Shown: positions 14,691 to 34,557 of the stretch, in pieces
Position numbering within the stretch: the first letter of the stretch is position 1
Layout of the letters: each line of letters opens with the position of its first letter
Source: Candidatus Buchananbacteria bacterium CG10_big_fil_rev_8_21_14_0_10_33_19
Lineage (GTDB): Bacteria; Patescibacteriota; Patescibacteriia; 2-01-FULL-39-33
Reading direction: 5' to 3'
Length of the DNA: 64,000 nucleotides
NCBI GenBank assembly: GCA_002773855.1
Contig: PEZY01000005.1
Span: forward strand, 218,221 to 282,220
Position numbers and translations under genes: made by a program
The notes under the pieces: model-generated
Databases searched by the model: none
Seen by the model: only the letters and a program-made list of their open reading frames with translations
Told to the model about the DNA's origin: nothing

Positions 14691-17600
14691 TTAAATTTTC
14701 TGTATCGCTAATTTAACTTCTTCACCATTTAGATTAAAACTCTTACCATGATCATCCTGATTAATTAATTTAGAGGTTAAAGTAGAATTCTTTAGTTCGG
14801 TTGAAAGTTTTTCACCAGTTAACACTTGTTTCATTATTTCGCTATCACTAGTCCACAAAACATTTATCCGATCACCAATAGTTAAGCCATCTGTCTTTCT
14901 TAAGCTATTAATAGTTCTAATTAATTCTCGAAGTAAGCCTTCTAATTTTAATTCATCAGTTAATTCTAAATCTAATTCTACTTTTATTTCTGCGCCTTTT
15001 TCAAACTCGACAGTTTTCACATTTACTTCATCAGCGATTAGTTCAGATAGTTCGACTGGCAAATCATAACCAATGACTTTTAATTTAGCTAGCGGTTGTC
15101 TAATCTTTACTCCTTTTTCTGCTCGCATAGCCAAGCCCATTTCCACAATTCGTCTCACACTCTCCATTTGATCAATTATTTTATCATCAATGTTTCCAGC
15201 TTGTGGCCATTTGGCTAAATGAACTGATTCTAATTCTCCACCCACCCCACGGTAAACAGACTCAGCTAAAAACGGGACAAACGGTGCCATTACCTTGGAT
15301 ATTTCAATTAAGACAAAATTAAAAGTAGCAATCGCTTGATTCTTATCTTCGGTATCACCAGATTTAAAACGATCTCGACTGCGTCTTAACCACCAAGTTG
15401 AAAATTCATCAATAAAATCCTGAATTGGTCGCACCGCTTTAGCCAATTGATAATTATCCATCTCTTTGGAGACAGCTACTATTAATTCATTTAACTTCGA
15501 TAACAGCCACTTATCCAAAATATTTTTAGATTGATTATTTGGTTTAATGTTTTTATCTTCATATAATTGATAAAACTTTAAAACATTATTAGTTAACATC
15601 ACCACTTTTTGGAAAGCTTCTTTAACTCCCACTTCCGAAAAATTCAAATTTTCGGATGTCATCACTGGTGATGATAATAAATAAAACCGCAAAGCGTCAG
15701 CTCCATACTTATCCATTATCAAATCTGGTTCTGGATAATTCTTTAGTCGTTTACTCATCTTATTGCCATCCTCAGCTAGTACGATACCATTAGCAATAAC
15801 ATTTAAAAAGGCTGGCTTATCAAACAAAGCCGTGGCTAAAATCATTAAAGTATAAAACCAACCTCTGGTTTGATCGACACCTTCAGCAATAAAATCAGCT
15901 GGAAAAGTATCTTGGAATTTATCTTTATTTTCAAACGGATAATGCAGTTGAGCATATGGCATCGAACCAGATTCAAACCAACAATCCAACACTTCTGGCA
16001 CTCGTTTCATTTCACCAGTACACTTTTCACATTTAAATCTGATAGTATCAACAACATCCTTATGAATATCTACTGTTCTATTTTTTAACTGGGTAATTTC
16101 GGTATTATCTGGCATATCATGATCAAAAACATTTTCCTGTTTAGTACCAGATAACTTAGCCGCCAAAACTCTAATATTATCACCATGTGAGACTAATAAA
16201 ACATTTTTATCTGGGTACTGATTTCTAATATCTTTGACAAGATCCAGCATTCTATTTTCTATATCCAAAACGCTTTCACCACCGCCAGGCAAAGATTTAG
16301 TATAAGTCTTACGCCAATCTGCTAATGCTTTTGCAGCATCCTCATTGGCATCAGACTGATCTTGTAATTCACCAGGATTGACTTCATTCAATCTTTTATC
16401 AAAAATTAACCTAAGCCCTAGGCCATCAGCAATTATTTTAGCTGTTTCTCTGGCTCGCAAAACATCCGAACTAACAATTAAATCAATGTTTAAATCTTTT
16501 ACATTTTTAATCGCTACTTCAGCTTGAGTTTTACCTTTTTCGGTTAAGGGATATTTATTTTCATCATCACTAAAAACATTTAAAACATTTTTTTCAGACT
16601 CGGCATGACGAATAGCATAAATATTGGTACTAAAAATTTTTGATTTGTCTAATTCTTCTAGTGAACCAACTACTTTAATATCATTACAATCATTACAACG
16701 CCAAACTGGTAATGGAGCACCCCAAAATCTAGATCTGGAAATCGCCCAATCCCGGGCGTCCTCTAGCCATTTACCAAAACGACCATTTTTCAAATGATTG
16801 GGAATCCAATTAACTTGTTGATTATTTTTAATTAAATCTTTTTTAATTTCAGTTACCTTCACAAACCAAGAAGAAGTGGCGTAGTTAAGTAACGGTGTAT
16901 CACAACGCCAACAATGTGGATAGCTATGTTCATATTTTTCTTTAGCAAATAACAAGCCTTTTTCGGCTAAATATTTAATAATTACCACATCCGTTTTTTG
17001 AGTATCTTCTTTGGGCTTGACCTCTAGGCCAGCAAAAGCCTCACCAGCTTCTTTTTTGATATGACCAGTTTCATCAACATGTTGAATCATTGGCAAATTC
17101 TTTTCGTTACCCAAAGCCATATCTTCTTCACCAAAAGCTGGCGCGATATGCACTACTCCCACACCATCAGTCGTCGACACAAAATCAGCCGACACAATAA
17201 TGTATAAGTTCTCCCTATAGTCTATAGCCACGTCTTTATAACAATCAAAAAGTGGTTGATATTTTTTACCAACTAAATCATGGCCTTTTAAATTTTCTAC
17301 TATCTCATAACTTTTGTCAGCAAAAACTTTCTCCAGTAAATCTTTAGCTAAAATATAATTTACATCTTCACTTTTTACTTTTACATATTCAATATCCTCT
17401 CCCACTGCCAAAGCTACATTACCAATTAAAGTCCAAGGAGTAGTGGTCCAAGCTAGAACATAAGTCCCTGGTTCATCTACTAATTCAAATTTAGCCGTCA
17501 CTGCTAAATCCTTAACATCTTTATAACCCTGAGTTACTTCAAAATTAGACAAAGTAGTTTCACAACGTGGGCAAATATGCATAGATTTATAGCCTTCATA

Positions 17601-18110
17601 AATCAAATCCTTGTCCCACAATTCTTTAAACACCCACCAAATACTTTCCATATACCATGGCTCCATAGTCCGATAATCATGTTCCATGTCTACCCATCGG
17701 CCCATTCGAGGAATTGTTTTTTTCCAAATATCAGCGTAACGCAAAACACTTAAACGACAACTTTCATTAAATTTATCAATACCAATATCTTCAATATCCT
17801 TACGACTAGTTAAATTTAATTCTTGCTCTATCATATTTTCAACTGGCAAACCATGACAATCCCAACCCCAACGGCGTTCAACATAATGACCATTCATAGT
17901 TTGATACCTTGGTACCACATCTTTCATAATACTAGCCACCAAATGACCATAATGAGGAGTACCAGTAGCAAACGGTGGGCCATCATAAAAACTAAAAACC
18001 TTACCATTTTTAGTAGCCTCTAAACTTTTGTGAAATATATTATTATCTTCCCAAAATTTTTGGATTTCTTCTTCCTTTATAACTAAAGGATTCTTTTTTT
18101 GATCACTCAT
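14691..18110 (-). CDS. ileS: Isoleucyl-tRNA synthetase (type 2, eukaryote-like) carrying an inserted histidine-phosphatase domain
   Basis: PPFATGTPHYGH, GWDCHGLP and the KMSKR (KMSKS-type) motif. C-terminal ...VLDCWFESG...EGVDQTRGWF. Start set at the internal ATG (MSDQKK). A phosphoglycerate-mutase-like domain (RHAES ... LVSHGDNIR) lies in-frame between the CxxC zinc knuckle and the DxHxP region. Confidence 0.95.
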   Translation of the reverse strand: MSDQKKNPLVIKEEEIQKFWEDNNIFHKSLEATKNGKVFSFYDGPPFATGTPHYGHLVASIMKDVVPRYQTMNGHYVERRWGWDCHGLPVENMIEQELNLTSRKDIEDIGIDKFNESCRLSVLRYADIWKKTIPRMGRWVDMEHDYRTMEPWYMESIWWVFKELWDKDLIYEGYKSMHICPRCETTLSNFEVTQGYKDVKDLAVTAKFELVDEPGTYVLAWTTTPWTLIGNVALAVGEDIEYVKVKSEDVNYILAKDLLEKVFADKSYEIVENLKGHDLVGKKYQPLFDCYKDVAIDYRENLYIIVSADFVSTTDGVGVVHIAPAFGEEDMALGNEKNLPMIQHVDETGHIKKEAGEAFAGLEVKPKEDTQKTDVVIIKYLAEKGLLFAKEKYEHSYPHCWRCDTPLLNYATSSWFVKVTEIKKDLIKNNQQVNWIPNHLKNGRFGKWLEDARDWAISRSRFWGAPLPVWRCNDCNDIKVVGSLEELDKSKIFSTNIYAIRHAESEKNVLNVFSDDENKYPLTEKGKTQAEVAIKNVKDLNIDLIVSSDVLRARETAKIIADGLGLRLIFDKRLNEVNPGELQDQSDANEDAAKALADWRKTYTKSLPGGGESVLDIENRMLDLVKDIRNQYPDKNVLLVSHGDNIRVLAAKLSGTKQENVFDHDMPDNTEITQLKNRTVDIHKDVVDTIRFKCEKCTGEMKRVPEVLDCWFESGSMPYAQLHYPFENKDKFQDTFPADFIAEGVDQTRGWFYTLMILATALFDKPAFLNVIANGIVLAEDGNKMSKRLKNYPEPDLIMDKYGADALRFYLLSSPVMTSENLNFSEVGVKEAFQKVVMLTNNVLKFYQLYEDKNIKPNNQSKNILDKWLLSKLNELIVAVSKEMDNYQLAKAVRPIQDFIDEFSTWWLRRSRDRFKSGDTEDKNQAIATFNFVLIEISKVMAPFVPFLAESVYRGVGGELESVHLAKWPQAGNIDDKIIDQMESVRRIVEMGLAMRAEKGVKIRQPLAKLKVIGYDLPVELSELIADEVNVKTVEFEKGAEIKVELDLELTDELKLEGLLRELIRTINSLRKTDGLTIGDRINVLWTSDSEIMKQVLTGEKLSTELKNSTLTSKLINQDDHGKSFNLNGEEVKLAIQKI

Positions 18111-18152
18111 ATTTTTGATATTTATTAATCCATTATGACATTTTTTGGGCAA

Positions 18153-25024: not shown

Positions 25025-26680
25025 TTAGACGGATTTTATTTTTTTAACTTTGCTTTTATCAGCTAATGGCACACTAAAAGAAAATTTACTACCTTTGTTT
25101 GGCCCAGGGCTCTCACCCCAAATACGACCACCCAAATTTTCGACTACCATGCGGGCAAAATACATGCCCAAGCCAGTACCTTCGGTATAGACTTGCATCA
25201 TACCTTTGCCTCGCACAAATTTTTCAAACAAACGCGGTAAATCTTCTGGTAGCACACCGATGCCGGTGTCCTGACAAGCAAAAACCACCGACTGACTCTC
25301 CTGATGCAGACTGACAGTGATAGAGCCATGCTCTGTATATTTAATAGAGTTATCAATTATATTAGAAATAACTTCTTTAATCTTCTGAGCATCAACTGCC
25401 ACTTCTGGTACATCTGGATCTGGATAAAACTCCAAAGATAATTTTTTATCAGTGGCTCTTTTTTGAAAACCTTCAACAATATCTTTTATAACCTTAGTTA
25501 AATCAGTTGGCTGAATATCAAACTGCAAATTACCAGATTCAATCCTAGAAATATTAAGTAGACTTTCCACCAAACTAATTAATCTTTCATTGGATAAATA
25601 AACCTTACTTAAATTATCTTTAACAATTTTAGGAATCCTACCAAAACTACCCTCTTGCATCATAGAAACATATCCCTTGATCACAGTGAGTGGAGTGCGC
25701 AGTTGATGAGAAGCGATAGACAAAAACTCTGATTTTGCTTCATCTAATTTTTTTAATTCAGTATTAACTTTCTTTAAATTATTGCTAGCCGCTTTAAGAT
25801 TATTAGTTAAAGATTCAATTTTTTCACGACGAGCAATTTCATTTAATACCGATCTAATAAGTAATAGTATAAAAAATATAGTTAATACAAACATTACTAC
25901 CCGATACACTAATTCAAAGCTTTCTTTAGCCTCCACAACATAAAAGCCAGATACAGTAACAATAAAAATAGAAAATATAATAGTTGTAATAATTTTTACA
26001 TCAATTAAACGTCGCTTGATTAAAGCATAGGCCATAAAAGCAATCCAAATTACAGTAGAAATCTGACCAATCCAATTGAGATCTAAGAAACCAAACCAAG
26101 GCAAAAATAAATTAGTGCTCAAAGAAATAAAGGATGAAGCTAATAGACCAATAAATAAATACTTTAACTGACTTCTAATTGATCCAGATGATTTATATAT
26201 ATCAGAAAATAAATTGATCAATGTCCATAAAAAATACATAGAAACATTAATAGTATAAATTAAGTAACCAGACCCAAAAACAATATTATTTCTAATTTTA
26301 GAAATAATCTGGACATCACTAACCACCATATTAGTGAACAATGTTATATAAAAAATCACTAAAGCTGGTAAGGAAATAAATAAAAGTATGAGTTTATTTC
26401 GCCAAAAAACCTTTTCCACTGGAAAAACAAAGGTAAAAAATAAAAAAAATAATGGAATGAATACAGCTACTGCATAAAATAATCTCACCAACAGTAAAGC
26501 CAAACTAACCTGAGTAATCGTATTATAAATTATAATTAAAACTGCCCATAGCACTACATTAAAAACAACTATACTAAACAAAATATTGGATTTTTTAATA
26601 GGCCGTTGTAATAATATAATAAAACCCAAGAAAAAATTTATCAGGCTGACAATTATTAAAATGATGGTTTTTATGTCCAT
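25025..26680 (-). CDS. Sensor histidine kinase with a multi-TM (about 7 TM) N-terminal domain
   Basis: H-box LSIASHQLRTPLTVIKGYVSMM and HATPase_c G-boxes (DTGIGV, GTGLGM). N-terminal 250 aa is hydrophobic. Confidence 0.85.
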   Translation of the reverse strand: MDIKTIILIIVSLINFFLGFIILLQRPIKKSNILFSIVVFNVVLWAVLIIIYNTITQVSLALLLVRLFYAVAVFIPLFFLFFTFVFPVEKVFWRNKLILLFISLPALVIFYITLFTNMVVSDVQIISKIRNNIVFGSGYLIYTINVSMYFLWTLINLFSDIYKSSGSIRSQLKYLFIGLLASSFISLSTNLFLPWFGFLDLNWIGQISTVIWIAFMAYALIKRRLIDVKIITTIIFSIFIVTVSGFYVVEAKESFELVYRVVMFVLTIFFILLLIRSVLNEIARREKIESLTNNLKAASNNLKKVNTELKKLDEAKSEFLSIASHQLRTPLTVIKGYVSMMQEGSFGRIPKIVKDNLSKVYLSNERLISLVESLLNISRIESGNLQFDIQPTDLTKVIKDIVEGFQKRATDKKLSLEFYPDPDVPEVAVDAQKIKEVISNIIDNSIKYTEHGSITVSLHQESQSVVFACQDTGIGVLPEDLPRLFEKFVRGKGMMQVYTEGTGLGMYFARMVVENLGGRIWGESPGPNKGSKFSFSVPLADKSKVKKIKSV

Positions 26681-26716
26681 AAAATATTATTTATAATCTC
26701 TTAGCTAATACTCGTT

Positions 26717-28348
26717 TTATTTTTTAACATCAGAAATTGGAATACTAAACAAAAAATTAGCGCCTTTGTTTTCTCCATCGCTTTCTACCCATATTTTACC
26801 ATTCATATTTTCTATGACCATTTTAGAAAAATAAAGATCCAAACCATTGTCACCAGTAAACGAGGATGTCGCATTATTTTTTTTAATAAACTGATTAAAT
26901 ATATCTGGTAATTTTTCTACGGCAATACCCATACCAGTATCTTGACAACTAAAAACCACTGATCCAGTATTACATGATAAACTAAGATTAATGGAACCTT
27001 GGTCGGTATATTTAATAGCATTGTCAATAAAGTGAACTATAACCTCTTTGATACGATCTGCATCAATTAAAACTTTAGGAATATTTTTATCAATAACAAC
27101 ATTTAATTTTATCTTTTTCTTTTTAAATTTTTTAACATAACTAGGAACTAAAGTCTTAATAATCTCAGAAATAGCAGTTGATTTAATATTAAATTCCAAT
27201 CTACCAGCCTCCATTCGAGATATATTCAATAGATTTTCTACTAAATTAATTAATCTTTCATTAGCAGCATAAACTTTAGTTAAATTAGTCTTAATTAATT
27301 TTGGTATTTTCCCAAAACTACCTTCTAGCATCATAGACACATAACCTTTAATAACTGTCAACGGTGTTCGTAGCTGATGCGAAGCAATGGATAAAAATTC
27401 TAGCTTAGCTTGATCAATTCTTTTAATTTTATCATTCGCTTTTTCTAAATTTTTAGTTACTTTACGTAAATCTTTTGATAATAACTCCATTTCTTCACGT
27501 CTTTTAACATCTTTTTGGACTAGTCTAATTAACAAAACAGCAAAAGTAATAGTGATAATAAAAATACCAATTCTGATAATAAAATCAATCGTAGATTTAT
27601 TAGAAAAAACATCAGTAAAAGTTACCAAGCTTAACAAAACAGCAATGACCTGCGTCGCAATTACTTTAACATTTAAAAAATTATATTTAATAATACTATA
27701 AACGATAGTTATTACAACAATAAATAAGGCGATTGGACCAGTCCAAGCGTAGCGAAAATCTCCCAAGGCCACCAAAATCATATTCACAAAACCAGAATAA
27801 ATCAACGGTAAAGAGACGCTTAAAAGAAAGATTAATATCATTTTTCGTCTTTTACCATGAGACTTAAACAATTTTAAAAATAGAATCAATAAGCCACCAC
27901 CCATATACAAAAAAAAGTAGGTAAAATAAAAGTAATATATTGGACCATACATTAAAGTTCTAACTCTATCATTAAACTCTAATCCAATAATAATCTGTCT
28001 ATTTATAAACAAGAAATGAGTTATCAATATGATGGGAATATAATAAAATAATTGAACAAATTTATTTAAAGGTATCTTCTCATCAGGATAAACCAAAGCA
28101 AAATAAAAAAAGCTGTGCGCAATAAGTGCTCCAGCTAAATGCAGAATTAACGACCAAATAAAAACATTTGTCCAATTCTCGGGTGTACTTTCATACATCA
28201 TCATAGAAAATGACCAAAATCCCAAACTAAAAGCAAATGCCGCAAACCACCGATTAATCAAACTTTTAACATTCTGAGTCAAGATGGTTAACCCTAAAGC
28301 AAAATTTAAAAAAGCAACCGAAACTAAAACTATAATTTTTATACTCAT
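26717..28348 (-). CDS. Sensor histidine kinase, a tandem paralogue of the previous one
   Basis: Same architecture. H-box LSIASHQLRTPLTVIKGYVSMMLEG is identical to the neighbour's. Confidence 0.85.
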   Translation of the reverse strand: MSIKIIVLVSVAFLNFALGLTILTQNVKSLINRWFAAFAFSLGFWSFSMMMYESTPENWTNVFIWSLILHLAGALIAHSFFYFALVYPDEKIPLNKFVQLFYYIPIILITHFLFINRQIIIGLEFNDRVRTLMYGPIYYFYFTYFFLYMGGGLLILFLKLFKSHGKRRKMILIFLLSVSLPLIYSGFVNMILVALGDFRYAWTGPIALFIVVITIVYSIIKYNFLNVKVIATQVIAVLLSLVTFTDVFSNKSTIDFIIRIGIFIITITFAVLLIRLVQKDVKRREEMELLSKDLRKVTKNLEKANDKIKRIDQAKLEFLSIASHQLRTPLTVIKGYVSMMLEGSFGKIPKLIKTNLTKVYAANERLINLVENLLNISRMEAGRLEFNIKSTAISEIIKTLVPSYVKKFKKKKIKLNVVIDKNIPKVLIDADRIKEVIVHFIDNAIKYTDQGSINLSLSCNTGSVVFSCQDTGMGIAVEKLPDIFNQFIKKNNATSSFTGDNGLDLYFSKMVIENMNGKIWVESDGENKGANFLFSIPISDVKK

Positions 28349-28411: not shown

Positions 28412-29083
28412 TTAAGATTGTTGTTTGTTATAAATTTTTTGAAAAATTTCAAATGACATCACACGATATGTCAAATCCATAGCATTAATTAGTTGTCCAG
28501 ATACGTAGACACTAATCAACATACTTGTAGTATTAACTCTATCGCCAGAAAATTCTACTACTAATAACAAGTTATCATTGGGCACAATAAATGGTTTGCG
28601 ATGACCATTAATTTTAGGCATAAAACTTTTAATAAACGCCACTGTAGACGCCAAAGCTACCATTTTTCCATGATCTTTACCGTTGCCATTGCTATCATTG
28701 GTAGCCAAAATAAGTATTGAACCAATTTGGGCCATAATCTGACCAAGCTTAGCCATAGGCAACATTGGATACCCAGGAAAATGATCTTCACAAAAATCAA
28801 ACGGAATTACAATATTAGAAAAAATACGATGATGATCATCATCTAAAACTGCCGAATTAAAAAATGATTGTTTTGGACCTTCGGCAATAATGCCATCAAT
28901 TTCAGCTTTACTTAAAAGCTGCAAATCAGTAGCACTATCAGGAATAGACAATGACTCGGGAATTTCTACTTTCAAGTAATCATGCAATAAATCAATAAAC
29001 CCATCTTTGCTAGTAATATGCATCTTAGTTGTCATTATAGTATCTCCTATGTTTGTATTAACAAAAGTGCAATCCGTAGACAT
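28412..29083 (-). CDS. Hot-dog fold FabZ/FabA-like dehydratase family protein
   Basis: EDHFPGYPMLPMAKLGQIMAQIG matches the FabZ HFPGxPxxPGVL..E..AQ motif. Confidence 0.55.
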   Translation of the reverse strand: MSTDCTFVNTNIGDTIMTTKMHITSKDGFIDLLHDYLKVEIPESLSIPDSATDLQLLSKAEIDGIIAEGPKQSFFNSAVLDDDHHRIFSNIVIPFDFCEDHFPGYPMLPMAKLGQIMAQIGSILILATNDSNGNGKDHGKMVALASTVAFIKSFMPKINGHRKPFIVPNDNLLLVVEFSGDRVNTTSMLISVYVSGQLINAMDLTYRVMSFEIFQKIYNKQQS

Positions 29084-29127: not shown

Positions 29128-29166
29128 TAAAAATAAAAAACCCATCCTCCTTAGGAGGATGGGTTT
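29128..29166 (-). terminator. Rho-independent terminator of the methyltransferase gene
   Basis: 10-bp perfect stem cccatcctcc/ggaggatggg with loop ttag; T-run on the minus strand. Confidence 0.6.
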
Positions 29167-29172
29167 AAACTA

Positions 29173-30138
29173 CTAAATTTTGCGAGCTACTACTATTACA
29201 CCTTGCTTGGCGTAATACTGACCAGAGCTTGATTCCACAAGCTCAAAGCCAGATTGCTTAAGCAGGTCTTGCCAGTCATCAACCGACAGATAGTGAGCAT
29301 GACCTTCTTGTTCAACTTGATTCATAAATGCCGAGAGTTTTTTGGCTTTAAAGCCGCCACTCAAGGCACGATACAATCCTTTCAAATTAAAATTCTTAAT
29401 CAAATACCAAAGAGAATCTCGCAATACTGCTCCCCAGTCCGGATTAGGACCAGGTGACGATACAGCTAGATAACCGCCAGGCTTAAGAACTCGATTAATA
29501 TCTGCCAAGCATCGAAGCAAAGCTTTTTTACTATCGCAGACAATTTCACCGTTTTCAAACCACCAGCCGGCATACATTATACCGCCTAAACTGGAGACTA
29601 CGCAATCCGCGGAGTTATTCCAGATAGGTAGTTCTGACATTGTCGATGACTGTACCAAGGCCACGCCCTGACGATAGCCAGAGTCTTTAAGTGTCTGAGG
29701 TACTTGTGACAAAGACTTCCAATCAATATCAACCGCAAAAATCTTTTTGACTTGGTGACCATTTGTTTCAAACAAACGGGCACAGAAATTACCAGCACCG
29801 CAACCTAGATCGACTAGAGTCTCACCTAAATACGGTGACACCATTTTGGCCAACTGCTCCTGTAATTCAATATACGGGTGAGAAGTGGAATTAAGTAGCC
29901 ATAAGACTTTCTCATTCCATTCCCAGAAATCACGAATAAATCCGCGAACCTGAGAATTTTTTCTCAACCGTTTAAATTCAGGACTCTCAAAAAATTCCGG
30001 CGAATCCTCTACCAGCTCATCGGTAATACGATGAAAGCGAATCTTGGTACGCCGACGTTTTAATTCTTCCGAGACTTTCTGGGGTGACATTCGCCGCCCA
30101 AGCCTCTCCATTATCTTCCGATGATGAGCGTGCGCCAT
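29173..30138 (-). CDS. Class I SAM-dependent methyltransferase
   Basis: LVDLGCGAGNF (motif I) and LKPGGYLAVS (motif III). Gene is GC-rich, about 45-50%. Confidence 0.75.
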   Translation of the reverse strand: MAHAHHRKIMERLGRRMSPQKVSEELKRRRTKIRFHRITDELVEDSPEFFESPEFKRLRKNSQVRGFIRDFWEWNEKVLWLLNSTSHPYIELQEQLAKMVSPYLGETLVDLGCGAGNFCARLFETNGHQVKKIFAVDIDWKSLSQVPQTLKDSGYRQGVALVQSSTMSELPIWNNSADCVVSSLGGIMYAGWWFENGEIVCDSKKALLRCLADINRVLKPGGYLAVSSPGPNPDWGAVLRDSLWYLIKNFNLKGLYRALSGGFKAKKLSAFMNQVEQEGHAHYLSVDDWQDLLKQSGFELVESSSGQYYAKQGVIVVARKI

Positions 30139-30175
30139 GTCTATCCCCTTTCTAAGGTTAGAGCTCTAATTATTG

Positions 30176-30982
30176 CTAATAACTATAAAATCCTGAGCCA
30201 CTTTTTTGGCCCAATTTTCCAACTGAAACTTTTTCCTGTAAAATTTTGGGAATCGGTTTGCCATGCATTTGAAGCAAATGAGCCACCAAATCCAAACCGA
30301 CCATATCCATTACCTGAAAAGGACCGGCCGACATACCAGTAGCCGTCCGCCAAGCCAGATCAATATCCTCGGGTGAGGAAATATCTCGCTCAGCTAAACT
30401 AAGAGACGATTCTTTTATCGCTTCCCACATATACCCAAAGACAAATCCCGGGTTGGAGCGATGTAGTACTATCGGTACCAAATGAACCGACTGGCAAAAT
30501 TCTATGACCGTATCAATAGTCTCTTGACTGGTTTTGGTTCCACGGCCAATCTCCACCAAAGGACGTTCCCAAACTGGTGGCAGAAAATGCATATTGCACA
30601 TCCGACAATCTGTAGCAGAGTCTGTTTCCAGCATGGTAACCGGCATAAACGAACTATTCGTAGCCAAAATACCAGAAACACCACTTGCTATCAAACCTTT
30701 GAATAATTCCACTTTCAGATCTTTGTCTTCAGTAGTGCAATCAATAAATAATTGATAATTATGTCGTAGATCACTGTTAGCAATTACGCCAGGGTAAATA
30801 TCAATATCTAAATCGGAAACTTCAAATTTACTACTCAAACTATTGATAATATTCATCGATTGATCAAGCACTTGCATACTCAAATCTGTCAATAATATCT
30901 TGACACCTTTCATTGCTAAATAAAAAGCGATCTGAGCGCCCATAAATCCACCGCCAATAATACACACTTTATTTATATTCAT
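30176..30982 (-). CDS. 3-hydroxyacyl-CoA dehydrogenase family protein (Hbd-like)
   Basis: IIGGGFMGAQIA (NAD-binding), ATNSSF, MHFLPP, PGFVFG, C-terminal G.KSGSGFYSY. Gene is GC-rich, about 55%. Confidence 0.8.
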   Translation of the reverse strand: MNINKVCIIGGGFMGAQIAFYLAMKGVKILLTDLSMQVLDQSMNIINSLSSKFEVSDLDIDIYPGVIANSDLRHNYQLFIDCTTEDKDLKVELFKGLIASGVSGILATNSSFMPVTMLETDSATDCRMCNMHFLPPVWERPLVEIGRGTKTSQETIDTVIEFCQSVHLVPIVLHRSNPGFVFGYMWEAIKESSLSLAERDISSPEDIDLAWRTATGMSAGPFQVMDMVGLDLVAHLLQMHGKPIPKILQEKVSVGKLGQKSGSGFYSY

Positions 30983-31306
30983 GACAAGTTCTCCTTTTTG
31001 TTCAATTGTAAGGTTCGATTTCTAAACAAATATTATCATAAAAGTTATATTTTGTCAAGTAAAATTAAATAAAAAAATAGACCGAGGCGGGACCTGGGTC
31101 TAGATTCAGAGATATCGCTTTAGTCAAGCAACGAACAGCAGCTACCCTGTTCAGTGTTTGCCTCACGACTGTTTGCCCCTCTCTGAAGGAGCGAAAAAAT
31201 GAATGCGTTAGATAATGTACTATGAATACCTGTATTATACATACATGCAACAATTATGTCAAGTGTCAAGTGTGGATAACTACCACCAACAACTGCTATT
31301 CTGACA

Positions 31307-31335
31307 TTGACTAAATTTAAGAAAAATGCTAAAAT
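31307..31335 (+). promoter_or_regulatory. Sigma70-like promoter TTGACT-17-TAAAAT upstream of the FadL-like gene
   Basis: Hexamers with a 17-nt spacer, about 55 nt upstream of the ATG. Confidence 0.45.
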
Positions 31336-31391
31336 ATAATGTTAGCGAGAAGTAGCTAGTTTTTCAACAAAAAAACGGAGATACAGAAAAA

Positions 31392-32573
31392 ATGAAACGA
31401 TCAGTCCTTTTGACAATTTTAATTTCCATTTTACTAAGCAACCAATGTTTTGCTGGTGGTCTCAATCGCATCGGTGGCATAGGCTCCCGGGCTGGTGGCA
31501 TGAGTGGTGCTTTTACTGCTATTGCTGATGATGTCACTCTCTTTTACTACAACCCAGCCGGCATGTCTCAATTTGAGACCACTTATATCGAAGCCGGGGT
31601 TGATGTTGTCGTCCCTCGCCTAAAATATAATGGTCATAATTCTGACAATGATGCTTGGCACGCCCTACCTTATGCCGGGGTAATCTATCCGGCAAACGAT
31701 CGCGTCAATATTGGACTGGGTTTGACCGTGCCTTATGGCATGGGGGCTAGCTTCAAAAAAAGTTGGCCACTACCGGAGACAGAAACTCTACTTAGTCTAA
31801 CCAATATTACACCAGCCCTGTCACTCAAATTGTGTGACAAATTTTATGTAGGCGTTGGACTCAATATCGGTTATGGCCAATTTAAATACCGGGCACCATT
31901 TGATGTTGATGGAATTTTTCTGCCCATTTGCACCGACAACGAAGCTAGTGGCTTTGGACTAGGTACTACTATTGGACTGATGTATTTTCCTACCGACAAA
32001 TTAACTTTTGGTCTCACTTATATGAGTGAGCTAAAGGTTAATTTCAATGGCGAATCTGATATTTCTATCGGCCCAATTAGTATTCGCGATAAATTCAAAA
32101 GCGACTTCACTTTCCCGCCACGTTTGGGATTGGGCATCGCCTATCAATTTACCGATAGATTAACTGTTGATTTCGATGCCAATTGGTATGGCTATTCCAA
32201 AACTGTTAACAGTATGACGCTGCAGTTTGATAAGTTAAATTTTGGCAAAACTACCAAGCTAAATTGGCAAGATAATTTTAGTCTACACCTTGGAGCTCGC
32301 TATCGCCTAAACAACGATTGGTGGCTACGAGCTGGTATGGCTTATCAAAATTCTGCTATTCCTGATTCAACCATTAGTCAATTAACACCCGATGCCAGTG
32401 GTTGGGACGTGGCCTTTGGTCTGGAATGCGAAAAAGACAACTTCTCATTTGGTGTTGGTACTATCTACGGCTGGGGTGAAAATGATGTAGAACCAAACTT
32501 CGGCGTTCGCTACCCTGGCAAGTATGAAGCTCAAACATTAACAGTTGGTCTTCAAGCTAGTTGGAAATTCTAG
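31392..32573 (+). CDS. Outer-membrane hydrophobic-compound transporter, FadL/TodX (OMPP1) family-like beta-barrel
   Basis: Signal peptide. N-terminal AGGLNRIGGIGSRAGGMSGAFTAIADDVTLFYYNPAGM resembles the FadL N-terminal hatch motif. Alternating beta-strand pattern; C-terminal Phe (SWKF). GC about 55-58%. Confidence 0.55.
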   Translation: MKRSVLLTILISILLSNQCFAGGLNRIGGIGSRAGGMSGAFTAIADDVTLFYYNPAGMSQFETTYIEAGVDVVVPRLKYNGHNSDNDAWHALPYAGVIYPANDRVNIGLGLTVPYGMGASFKKSWPLPETETLLSLTNITPALSLKLCDKFYVGVGLNIGYGQFKYRAPFDVDGIFLPICTDNEASGFGLGTTIGLMYFPTDKLTFGLTYMSELKVNFNGESDISIGPISIRDKFKSDFTFPPRLGLGIAYQFTDRLTVDFDANWYGYSKTVNSMTLQFDKLNFGKTTKLNWQDNFSLHLGARYRLNNDWWLRAGMAYQNSAIPDSTISQLTPDASGWDVAFGLECEKDNFSFGVGTIYGWGENDVEPNFGVRYPGKYEAQTLTVGLQASWKF

Positions 32574-32585
32574 CTCAAAACCAAA

Positions 32586-32630
32586 CCCGCCCCGATACAA
32601 TATCGGAGCGGGTTTTATTTTTATTTTTTC
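32586..32630. terminator. Bidirectional terminator between the FadL-like gene and the RNHCP gene
   Basis: cccgccccgatacaatatcggagcggg hairpin followed by a T-run. Confidence 0.6.
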
Positions 32631-32941
32631 ATTTTTTTATCAGCTAATTGCTTACTCAATTTAACCACCTCATCAAAATCATCATCCTCCGAAATAATAT
32701 TTCGCTTTCTTATATCGCACCTCTCACATTCATGAACTAAAATCCAATTTTGACCCTCTTTATATAAATCCACTGGTCGCATCATACCAGCACACTCCTC
32801 GGCTCTATCACCAGGATTAATATCAACATGCTTAGACCACAAACACTGAGGACAATGGTTGGTATAACCAGTTCCCTTTACATTTGTACCACAATTAGCA
32901 CAAGTGAAATCTTCTCTTTTTTTAGTAAATCTTTTTGGCAT
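32621..32941 (-). CDS. RNHCP domain-containing zinc-ribbon protein
   Basis: CANCGT...GYTNHCPQCLWSKH and HECERCD match the RNHCP signature and Cys pairs. Confidence 0.6.
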   Translation of the reverse strand: MPKRFTKKREDFTCANCGTNVKGTGYTNHCPQCLWSKHVDINPGDRAEECAGMMRPVDLYKEGQNWILVHECERCDIRKRNIISEDDDFDEVVKLSKQLADKKMKK

Positions 32942-33044: not shown

Positions 33045-33121
33045 TGGGGGGCACGACGGGGGTCGAACCCGTGACCTCTAGGACCACAACCTAGCGCTCT
33101 AGCCAACTGAGCTACATGCCC
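33045..33121 (-). tRNA. tRNA-His (anticodon GTG), CCA encoded, no genomically encoded G-1
   Basis: Minus-strand GGGCATGTAGCTCAGTTGGCTAGAGCGCTAGGTTGTGGTCCTAGAGGTCACGGGTTCGACCCCCGTCGTGCCCCCCA. Cloverleaf folds. Anticodon loop TTGTGGT gives GUG; discriminator C73. Confidence 0.85.
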
Positions 33122-33135
33122 GTATTATTAAAGAC

Positions 33136-34557
33136 CTATTTGCCTAAACTTGATTTCAAGTTAGCAAAACACTCTTCCTTTGTCAATAACTCTTGCTTTC
33201 TGGCGTTCATATCCTTTAACTGTATTTTACCACTAGCCATTTCTTCTGGTCCAATTATTACCACAAACGGAATACTCTTTTTGGCCGCATAAGAAAATTG
33301 AGCTCTAAATGTATAATCATCACCCAAATAAAGTTCGGTATTATAACCATTCTGTTGCAACTCTTGAACCATATCCATAGAATATTTTTGTAATTCTGGA
33401 TCAAAGATAGTAACCAAAACATCGGTAACAGAATCTCGTTTATCTATTAGACCTAACTTTTGCAAAGCCACAATTAATCTATCAATGCCAACAGAAGCAC
33501 CAACTCCGGCTATATTGCTACCAGCAATAAATCTATTAGTTAAGCCATCAAAACGACCACCAGAAAAAACACTACCAATTTCTGGAATATCAGTTAGAGT
33601 AGTTTCAAATACTGGACCAGTATAATAATCCAAACCTCTGGCTACTGACAAATCAATTTTCCAATTTTTTTGAGGAATATTTAAATCGGTCAAAGCTTTA
33701 GAAATTTTTTGCAGTTCATATAATCCAGATTGTCCTAAGTCATCACTGTCACCAAAAAAATCTTGAAGTTTTACCAAAACATCATCTGATGATTCAGATT
33801 TTATTTGTAAAAAGGCAATCACTTTTTCCGCTTTGTTTTCGGTCATAGCTAGAGCCGTATCATCATACTCATTAGCGGGCTGACGCATTAATTCAGATTT
33901 AACACCAGTCAAACCAATTTTGTCTAACTTATCAATAATTCTAAATAACTCTTTTGAGTTATCCAAACAATTTACCGCTTCAGCTAGTCCATTAAGAATT
34001 TTTCGAGTATTAAATCTAATCAAGAAATTATCAATCCCCAAAGCCTTCATTGATTGATACATCACTTGAATTACTTCAATATCAGCCAAAATAGAATTGG
34101 AACCAATTATATCAAAATCAAACTGTGAAAATTCACGGTATCGACCAGCTTGTGGTCTTTCGCCTCGCCAAACTTTACCAATTTGATAACGCTTAAACGG
34201 TTTTGGTAAATCTGGATAAGCGGCAATAACTCTGGCTAGTGGCACAGTCAGATCAAATCTTAAAGTATAGTCTTGATCCCAACTGTCATTAGCAATTTTC
34301 TTGTCCTCGATACCTCTAACAATTCTAGCCAAAAAAATACTCTTATTAAAATTATCAGTATTACCCAATAAAACTTTTCTGTTTTCCATACCTGGTGTTT
34401 CCAATGGCACAAAACCAAAAGATTCATAAACTTTTCTAATGGTATCAACTACTTTTTGAGTCATCAAAGCCTCAGCTGGAAGTAAATCCCTAAATCCACC
34501 AAGTAATTCTGGCTTAATAATACTATCATTATTATTTGTTGGTTTTTCACTAGACAT
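33136..34557 (-). CDS. hisS: Histidyl-tRNA synthetase
   Basis: Class IIa motifs and HisRS-type N-terminus (LGGFRDLLPAEA...). C-terminal anticodon-binding domain. 473 aa. Adjacent to tRNA-His. Confidence 0.9.
   Translation of the reverse strand: MSSEKPTNNNDSIIKPELLGGFRDLLPAEALMTQKVVDTIRKVYESFGFVPLETPGMENRKVLLGNTDNFNKSIFLARIVRGIEDKKIANDSWDQDYTLRFDLTVPLARVIAAYPDLPKPFKRYQIGKVWRGERPQAGRYREFSQFDFDIIGSNSILADIEVIQVMYQSMKALGIDNFLIRFNTRKILNGLAEAVNCLDNSKELFRIIDKLDKIGLTGVKSELMRQPANEYDDTALAMTENKAEKVIAFLQIKSESSDDVLVKLQDFFGDSDDLGQSGLYELQKISKALTDLNIPQKNWKIDLSVARGLDYYTGPVFETTLTDIPEIGSVFSGGRFDGLTNRFIAGSNIAGVGASVGIDRLIVALQKLGLIDKRDSVTDVLVTIFDPELQKYSMDMVQELQQNGYNTELYLGDDYTFRAQFSYAAKKSIPFVVIIGPEEMASGKIQLKDMNARKQELLTKEECFANLKSSLGK

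Follow-up and report, generated by a model that had tools for sequence, protein, structure and literature searches.

The closest described relatives of the protein considered here are the outer-membrane channels of the OmpP1/FadL/TodX family, such as E. coli FadL, TodX, TbuX and CymD, and the FadL-fold accessory proteins of outer-membrane machines in Bacteroidota, such as PorV and BamG. Outer-membrane barrels carry a C-terminal aromatic signal which is recognised by the β-barrel assembly machinery (BAM). In the Candidate Phyla Radiation (CPR, or Patescibacteria), which makes up a large share of bacterial diversity, phylum-wide surveys have reported that porins and tethers are lost and that type IV secretion systems (T4SS) are of the monoderm type only, and evolutionary scenarios for the loss of the outer membrane take the group as uniformly monoderm. 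CPR bacteria lack lipid synthesis and depend on a host for lipids, with no lipid uptake route known (PMC11665869). Our search of the literature found no paper linking FadL or long-chain fatty-acid transporters with CPR. Here, we report the analysis of a locus encoding a FadL-type barrel in a 64,000-nucleotide stretch (hereafter, the window) of Candidatus Buchananbacteria bacterium CG10_big_fil_rev_8_21_14_0_10_33_19, contig PEZY01000005.1, positions 218,221 to 282,220 of the forward strand. The barrel gene and two enzyme genes form a GC-rich block at 29170-32580 of the window, which a preliminary description had taken for a recent horizontal acquisition. We conclude with high confidence that these genes are instead an old, vertically inherited and selected module found across one CPR clade. 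The three genes are as follows.

29173..30138, minus strand: class I S-adenosylmethionine (SAM)-dependent small-molecule methyltransferase (MT) of 321 amino acids with a helical N-terminal extension of about 95 amino acids (from Pfam and AlphaFold2, AF2)
30176..30982, minus strand: 3-hydroxyacyl-CoA dehydrogenase family enzyme (HCDH) of 268 amino acids (from Pfam and the PDB)
31392..32573, plus strand: FadL/TodX/OmpP1-family β-barrel channel (FadL) of 393 amino acids (from Pfam, AF2, Foldseek and motifs)

The barrel matched Pfam PF03349 (Toluene_X) with 148.2 bits against a gathering threshold of 29.7 (E 3e-43), residues 36-393 spanning positions 26-421 of the 421-position profile. Its AF2 model (pLDDT 88.8, pTM 0.85) consists of an N-terminal helical segment at residues 32-60 (pLDDT 94-97) and, thereafter to the C-terminus, β-strands. 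In Foldseek searches the model was matched to E. coli FadL (3pgs/1t16) with template modelling (TM) scores of 0.80-0.84 (E 8e-25), followed by P. aeruginosa FadL, CymD, TbuX and TodX; FadL-like subunits of BAM complexes were also retrieved (TM 0.63-0.66). A putative Sec-type signal peptide at about residues 1-22, with cleavage between CFA and GG (after MKRSVLLTILISILLSNQCFA), was read directly from the sequence, and residues 8-23 have low pLDDT in the model. In the plug motif N54-P55-A56, N54 is invariant in 29 sequences, with conservation of P55 and A56 there at 90% or more, and the whole motif is invariant in an 11-sequence set. It aligns with the NPA of CymD and with what we take to be N33-P34-A35 of E. 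coli FadL, a numbering that agrees with the names of the E. coli FadL mutants in the PDB that are aimed at this motif (N33A, P34A and delta-NPA). The protein ends in WKF, and F393 is at least 90% conserved in the family alignment. The curated NCBIfam models score far lower than their cut-offs: 65.2 bits against 585 for the FadL equivalog NF007988 (E 4e-18), 64.6 against 250 for BamG NF053685 (E 8e-18) and 50.9 against 90 for PorV/PorQ NF033709 (E 1.7e-13). Judged by profile and predicted fold, the barrel is thus a member of the OmpP1/FadL/TodX family, and neither an ortholog of E. coli FadL nor a BamG or PorV equivalog. The preliminary description had named the three products as a SAM methyltransferase, a 3-hydroxyacyl-CoA dehydrogenase and a FadL/TodX-like barrel of the FadL/OMPP1 family with a C-terminal Phe, and had called the cargo coherent and related to lipids or hydrophobic substrates. 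The three assignments are right, and the coherence of the cargo is likewise supported.

Relatives were sought among species-representative genomes and metagenome contigs with a FadL 45-81% identical to that of the window, the genome scan being made from an 11-sequence alignment. The FadL gene occupies the same slot in at least nine CPR lineages (L051, L005, L006, L052, L053, L007, L008, L010 and L054), within a gene order that is kept as ThrS, HD_4, HisKA_7TM kinase(s), in some cases a FabZ-like gene, MT, HCDH, FadL, RNHCP, S1, CDP-alcohol phosphatidyltransferase, FtsH, a 344-aa protein and PilB. FadL identity ranks the relatives as RNHCP and FtsH identity do (L051 > L005 > L006 > L052 > L053 > L007 > L010). 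Against the nearest relative, L051, synonymous divergence (dS) is 1.23 for FadL, 1.06 for FtsH and 1.27 for the kinase HK1, and the ratio of nonsynonymous to synonymous divergence (dN/dS) is 0.09, 0.04 and 0.11, respectively; for FadL against L005 it is 0.07. Since both measures are comparable to those of the flanks, the gene is as old as its neighbours and under purifying selection. The low dN/dS together with the invariant motifs refutes the earlier suggestion of a non-functional passenger.

The FadL subfamily comprises about 32 clusters at 40-100% identity, followed by a gap down to 27%. Outside the clade, the nearest relatives are 27% identical for FadL (a diderm branch at 40-44% apart), 30% for MT and 36% for HCDH, so that the suggested comparison with the nearest taxa yields no close relative of any of the three proteins beyond the clade. 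An identical FadL protein is recorded in NCBI as GW933_03360 of 'Candidatus Falkowbacteria bacterium' (Patescibacteria group); at least 24 contigs from independent samples, the longest reaching 467 kb, carry it. We considered contamination or a chimeric assembly and rejected both, as an identical 4.5-kb block with the same flanks recurs on independent contigs of up to 467 kb in several samples. Two further observations concern the records themselves. Four third party annotation (TPA) metagenome-assembled genomes (MAGs) with clear CPR-type synteny (L005, L008, L010 and L012) are labelled 'uncultured Gammaproteobacteria bacterium' in public records, and these labels are probably taxonomic errors. 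In the Patescibacteria genome L012 (9998-11209) the FadL ortholog is split into open reading frames of 93 and 294 amino acids, which reflects pseudogenisation or else a mistake in the assembly; no other disrupted copy was seen.

The recent acquisition proposed in the preliminary description, spelled out here as a genomic island from a GC-richer, diderm donor which has not yet been ameliorated, has base composition in its favour. The window belongs to a small, AT-rich genome (33.6% GC), and 29170-32580 stands at 41.3% against 33.2% in the remainder. The most GC-rich 3411-bp window of the 64 kb begins at 29201 (0.416), the next non-overlapping one reaches 0.359, and such windows have a mean of 0.332 (sd 0.013). 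The island is therefore real as the GC-richest 3.4 kb of the window, while the contrast of 45-58% with 27-33% first given for it fits local peaks only: inside the block, 45% is reached by just 37-39% of the 60-100-bp windows, the 300-bp windows have a maximum of 0.47, and GC dips to 0.30 near 30750-31050. GC content at third codon positions (GC3) is 0.401 in MT, 0.353 in HCDH and 0.373 in FadL, compared with 0.250 ± 0.032 in the 47 other genes of the window, 0.246 in the neighbouring 223-aa gene and 0.262 in the RNHCP neighbour. The rise is confined to exactly these three genes (z = 3.2-4.7 against the 47 others), and codon usage is likewise non-uniform: Arg AGA accounts for 5% in the module against 47% in host genes, and Leu TTA for 19% against 51%. 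The observed module GC3 of 0.373 compares with 0.261 expected from its own amino acids under host codon usage, and the rise is a codon-level effect, not one of amino-acid composition alone.

The same offset recurs, however, at every orthologous CPR locus tested. In seven of them (L005, L007, L010, L013, L051, L052 and L053), module GC3 lies above the flanks by 0.08-0.22 and above the composition-corrected expectation by 0.05-0.19; TTA is depleted in the module at 7/7 and AGA at 6/7. The flanking genes at these loci follow the composition of their own genome, unlike the GC-rich, AGA- and TTA-poor module. The offset therefore cannot date an arrival in this genome, and since synonymous sites are saturated at the divergence of the clade, incomplete amelioration does not explain it either. 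GC-rich, non-host codon usage is an inherited property of the module and not an arrival timestamp. Diderms with the same FadL subfamily have no GC3 excess (0.635 against 0.636 in L037; 0.535 against 0.58 in L039/L040). Two causes of the offset can be put forward as candidates: selection at the codon level and, given the flexible left side of the module described below, locus-specific recombination with biased gene conversion.

Besides its composition, a recent island would be favoured by a tRNA-His about 470 bp beyond the block and by the presence of the FadL subfamily in GC-rich diderms at about 43% identity (L011, P0025 and P0026). Against it stand the shared slot in at least nine lineages, the parity of dS and the congruent identity ranks, the distance to any potential donor and the clade-wide offset. 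Signs of mobility were also not found: direct repeats of at least 14 nt flanking the block are chance matches, with none of the att type; integrase or transposase Pfam domains are lacking in the window and related contigs; and a search of viral contigs in IMG/VR returned no copies. We consider a recent island very improbable. As a methodological caution, a sharp GC and codon discontinuity is no evidence of recent transfer here, because the discontinuity is itself inherited.

An older exchange is another matter. A FadL sub-branch comprising L011, P0025, P0019, P0022 and P0026, with 92% support, is found in genomes that are GC-rich and carry, among others, genes for type II secretion pseudopilins, Wza-type export and menaquinone. 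As the subfamily is common to GC-rich diderms, the CPR clade and a diderm lineage are likely to have exchanged the gene in ancient times. The direction of this transfer is left open by the neighbour-joining (NJ) bootstrap, the diderm sub-branch being nested within CPR members in 62% of replicates and in 26% when L010 is excluded.

Among the relatives FadL is constant, and only the MT/HCDH side varies. Two further features of this side of the locus are needed here.

28412..29083, minus strand: divergent FabZ-like protein of 223 amino acids, probably of hotdog fold, outside the GC block (from NCBIfam, the PDB and orthologs)
25025..28348, minus strand: two HisKA_7TM sensor histidine kinases (Pfam HisKA_7TM, HisKA and HATPase_c), adjacent at the loci of relatives

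MT occurs as two types across the lineages, and between L051 and the window the proximal kinase and MT are about 50% identical whereas the flanks are 80-93% identical. The variable slot contains a 4HBT thioesterase in L006 and a 347-aa protein of unknown function in L012, L013 and L054; HCDH lies beside FadL in L007, L010, L052 and L053, and a FabZ-like gene is present in L052 and L053. In L008 (5639-8618) and L010 (3721-7459) the slot between kinase and FadL additionally carries radical SAM/SPASM enzymes, an epimerase and a cupin at equally elevated GC, which suggests a larger variable cargo for small-molecule or peptide modification. In another setting, L041 (the context of P0014), a family member adjoins Methyltransf_20 and lies near LPD38 and Amidase_2, surroundings suggestive of a phage or mobile-element neighbourhood.

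The MT matched Pfam Methyltransf_31, Methyltransf_11, Methyltransf_25 and UbiE, and a search of 5.8 billion proteins yielded only 22 homologues, all encoded on contigs that also bear the FadL relatives. Assigning a substrate from structure was attempted and abandoned: the AF2 model (pLDDT 91.7) has only generic small-molecule class I methyltransferases as structural neighbours (TM ≤ 0.52), and PDB sequences gave no match at E < 1e-3. HCDH carries both domains expected of its family, 3HCDH_N (PF02737; E 7e-28, 98.2 bits against 22) and 3HCDH (PF00725; E 8e-17, 61.9 against 22.1), and is similar over its full length to 3-hydroxybutyryl-CoA dehydrogenases in the PDB (E 2e-30); it scored 174 bits with NCBIfam PRK08293, under the cut-off of 312. 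Its catalytic His-Glu region 'NMHFLPPVWERPLVEI' appears intact by eye, and two relatives are 52-57% identical, the rest at most 36%. For the FabZ-like protein, NCBIfam FabZ models matched at E 3.6e-6, 1.3e-5 and 1.1e-4, all under cut-off (25 bits against 155 for TIGR01750), all seven of the weak PDB matches were FabZ, and orthologs occupy the same position in L052 and L053 (E 7e-21 and 5e-61). In this genome the gene has host-like GC3, its own promoter and a separate transcription unit. H101...Q115 is invariant and the catalytic His (H101) is kept. From these sequence comparisons a hotdog fold is likely and canonical FabZ activity doubtful.

The reading that we prefer, and hold to be somewhat better than evenly supported, is of an ancient, vertically inherited and functionally maintained module of one Patescibacteria clade (Falkowbacteria, Buchananbacteria and relatives) which pairs a channel for hydrophobic substrates with tailoring enzymes. 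Its constant element is the FadL-family β-barrel, plugged at the N-terminus and predicted to be secreted, which, by homology, may pass hydrophobic molecules (long-chain fatty acids, lysolipid-like amphiphiles or hydrocarbons) over a polar outer barrier; again by homology, passage would be by passive diffusion through the barrel with exit via a lateral opening. Beside FadL lies a divergently transcribed variable slot, filled here by HCDH, the clade-specific MT and the FabZ-like hotdog protein, whose enzymes may act on the acyl compound after its import, modifying it in thioester form. The two 7TM sensor kinases, as constant neighbours, are candidate regulators of the module. A coupling of channel and enzymes is favoured by the confinement of the MT family to contigs with FadL relatives and by the recurrence of acyl-thioester enzymes beside FadL: since the recurring neighbours (HCDH, hotdog proteins of dehydratase or thioesterase type and the private MT) act on acyl thioesters or small hydrophobics, they fit the uptake and subsequent tailoring of scavenged acyl compounds by cells that lack lipid synthesis. 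For this specific mechanism, an uptake channel coupled to acyl-tailoring enzymes, we put the chances at even. Fold, motifs, purifying selection, synteny, descent within the clade and the compositional offset come directly from the data, and the substrate class, the coupling, the regulation and the membrane of the barrel are inferred.

Several points weigh against this preferred reading. CPR are regarded as monoderm (PMC11665869 among the sources), and it is not obvious what a FadL channel would do where an outer lipid barrier is absent. No BAM/Omp85, Lpt, Lol, Tol-Pal or other outer-membrane genes were found in the window or in the related CPR loci, which total about 250 kb, nor was an acyl-CoA synthetase, thiolase or acyl-CoA dehydrogenase found nearby, and no complete pathway is visible. 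In the FabZ-like protein an invariant Gln stands where alignment by eye places the catalytic Glu, the structural neighbours of MT point to no particular substrate, and the conserved codon anomaly has only candidate causes. In addition, FadL-fold proteins with non-transport roles also score with the barrel, as seen for BamG and PorV, both under cut-off.

The last of these points leads to an alternative in which the barrel has a structural, anchoring or secretion-accessory role, like PorV or BamG in Bacteroidota, and the neighbouring enzymes are unrelated to it. The BamG and PorV/PorQ models have E-values about level with that of FadL, BAM-complex subunits are among the structural matches, and the enzyme partners differ between lineages. 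All three profile scores are nevertheless far under the curated cut-offs, and the top structural matches are true transporters (FadL, TodX, TbuX and CymD). Moreover, the invariant NPA is exactly what the E. coli FadL mutants target, PorV and BamG operate in outer-membrane complexes that are absent here, and MT and FadL are tightly co-distributed. We regard a non-transport role as unlikely.

The chief difficulty lies with the membrane. The preliminary description had pointed out that a FadL-type channel would be unexpected in a monoderm CPR-like host, unless the organism is diderm, the gene a non-functional passenger or the protein used in a different membrane context. The puzzle is genuine, and its presence across the clade under selection makes it stronger than it first seemed. 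On the preferred reading the module implies an outer lipid barrier in the clade, or use of the barrel in the membrane of a host. The first of these would mean that the clade is not monoderm: a lipid layer resembling an outer membrane would have been kept or gained, and the FadL homologue would be one of its ordinary proteins. Such a view agrees with the preferred reading and specifies the membrane. All FadL outer-membrane hallmarks (signal peptide, plug, barrel and C-terminal aromatic residue) are conserved under selection, whereas the 64 kb and the related loci contain no outer-membrane biogenesis gene and the phylum-wide surveys speak for porin and tether loss and monoderm-type T4SS. On balance such an envelope appears rather improbable, though less so than the other specific alternatives. 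The second possibility is export, by which a monoderm epibiont would secrete the barrel into the outer membrane of a diderm host, opening a lateral route for host lipids or hydrophobic metabolites, to be taken up and tailored by the CPR cell. Export would reconcile a conserved, selected outer-membrane-type barrel with a monoderm producer; it accords with the dependence of CPR on hosts for lipids, with the C-terminal aromatic residue kept in the family and with a subfamily common to diderm bacteria. Yet the intercellular delivery of a FadL-type barrel has no known precedent, the module has no linked genes for a secretion system or an adhesin, and the proposal is pure inference. We rate it as unlikely, to the same degree as the non-transport role.

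Taken at its widest, the preferred reading would describe a clade-wide FadL channel with private acyl-tailoring enzymes, serving either at an unrecognised outer lipid barrier or in the outer membrane of a host, as the first device for lipid or hydrophobic-nutrient acquisition in CPR, with codon usage kept by an unrecognised locus-specific force (codon selection, or a hot spot of recombination with biased gene conversion). This full combination is tentative and on the whole doubtful. The module is nonetheless a candidate lipid-scavenging device: a conserved, selected FadL barrel beside acyl-thioester and methyl-transfer enzymes is a concrete, testable candidate for the missing CPR lipid route, and the barrel can serve as a marker in the search for CPR clades that might have an outer lipid layer.

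The remaining features in and around the block are listed below.

29138..29166, minus strand: intrinsic terminator ending the HCDH-MT operon (13-bp stem with 7 GC pairs, T-run)
31030..31058, minus strand: promoter-like site proximal to the HCDH-MT operon (TTGACA-17-TAATAT with TG, 10/12)
31067..31227, minus strand: candidate small RNA (sRNA) of about 160 nt, divergent from FadL (own promoter and terminator)
31307..31335, plus strand: promoter-like site for FadL (TTGACT-17-TAAAAT with TG, 10/12)
32583..32630, no strand assigned: intrinsic terminator serving both directions, between FadL and the convergent RNHCP gene (AAACCCGC-C-CCGATA / TATCGG-A-GCGGGTTT stem and T-run, read from the sequence)
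32621..32941, minus strand: RNHCP-domain protein of 106 amino acids, host-like in composition, convergent with FadL (Pfam PF12647, E 1e-29)
33045-33121: tRNA-His, adjoining hisS at 33136-34557

The two terminators correspond to those by which the island had been said to be bounded; the right one had been missed by the scanner on account of a single C·A mismatch in its 14-bp stem.

The candidate sRNA lies in the 409-bp gap between HCDH and FadL. Its σ70 promoter, on the minus strand, is perfect (31234-31262, TTGACA-17-TATAAT) and is followed about 160 nt downstream by a terminator hairpin with a U-run (31067-31101); the fold has z = -2.1. The 246-nt leader upstream of HCDH was considered as a riboswitch and rejected (no Rfam match at E ≤ 1, fold z = -1.0), the region being re-read as this separate candidate sRNA. 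The element, promoter included, is conserved upstream of FadL in L008 (9708-9866) and L045 (nhmmer E 1e-7), a lineage in which FadL is only 44% identical to that of the window. The blocks GGGCAAnnAGUCGUGAGGCA and GACnAAAGCGAnAUC are common to the three, and the pairing of the hairpin is kept in L008 and L045 with a different sequence. The sRNA itself had no Rfam match at E ≤ 1, and a covariance model built from two sequences found no further copy. A metagenome scan for the core motif returned nine matches, one of them genuine (L045, of the same lineage as L008); the others were dismissed as chance matches within coding sequence.

RNHCP adjoins FadL in L005, L007, L010, L051, L052 and L054. In the window a block of hisS, tRNA-His, a SLOG gene and a gene for a 337-aa protein sits between RNHCP and S1 and is an insertion relative to L051 and L052, hence a local rearrangement unrelated to the GC block. 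The 64 kb are rich in aminoacyl-tRNA synthetase genes and include rpoBC, murE, a type IV pilus ATPase, VanW and DUF4015. The isoleucyl-tRNA synthetase (14691-18152, minus strand, 1153 amino acids) is interrupted at about residues 505-686 by a histidine-phosphatase domain of the phosphoglycerate-mutase-like kind, and the same tRNA-synt_1, His_Phos_1, tRNA-synt_1 architecture is found in L052.

Compared with known systems, the module has in common with a classical genomic island a sharp GC and codon discontinuity, a contiguous block between terminators and a nearby tRNA. It differs in having neither integrase nor att repeats, in its presence in relatives, in a phylogenetically congruent FadL whose dS equals that of the flanks, and in a deviation that is conserved clade-wide. 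HCDH shares both Pfam domains and full-length similarity with the clostridial-type Hbd/HAD dehydrogenases, but it shares no more than 36% identity with proteins from outside the clade, scores below the NCBIfam equivalog cut-offs, and is paired with a methyltransferase in place of a crotonase or thiolase partner. PorV and BamG belong to the same fold superfamily as the barrel, with comparably weak profile scores and BAM-complex subunits among its Foldseek matches; the barrel nevertheless falls below their cut-offs, has no type IX secretion system (T9SS) or BAM partners in its neighbourhood and is structurally nearer to the transporters. With E. coli FadL, TodX, TbuX and CymD it shares the fold (TM 0.78-0.84), the NPA plug, a predicted Sec signal peptide, the C-terminal aromatic residue and a length of about 390-430 amino acids. 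It is, however, only 17-19% identical to them in structure-based alignment, the residue aligned with what we take to be D348 of E. coli FadL is not Asp, and, in a lineage regarded as monoderm, it adjoins a clade-specific MT, HCDH and FabZ-like protein rather than fadD or β-oxidation genes.

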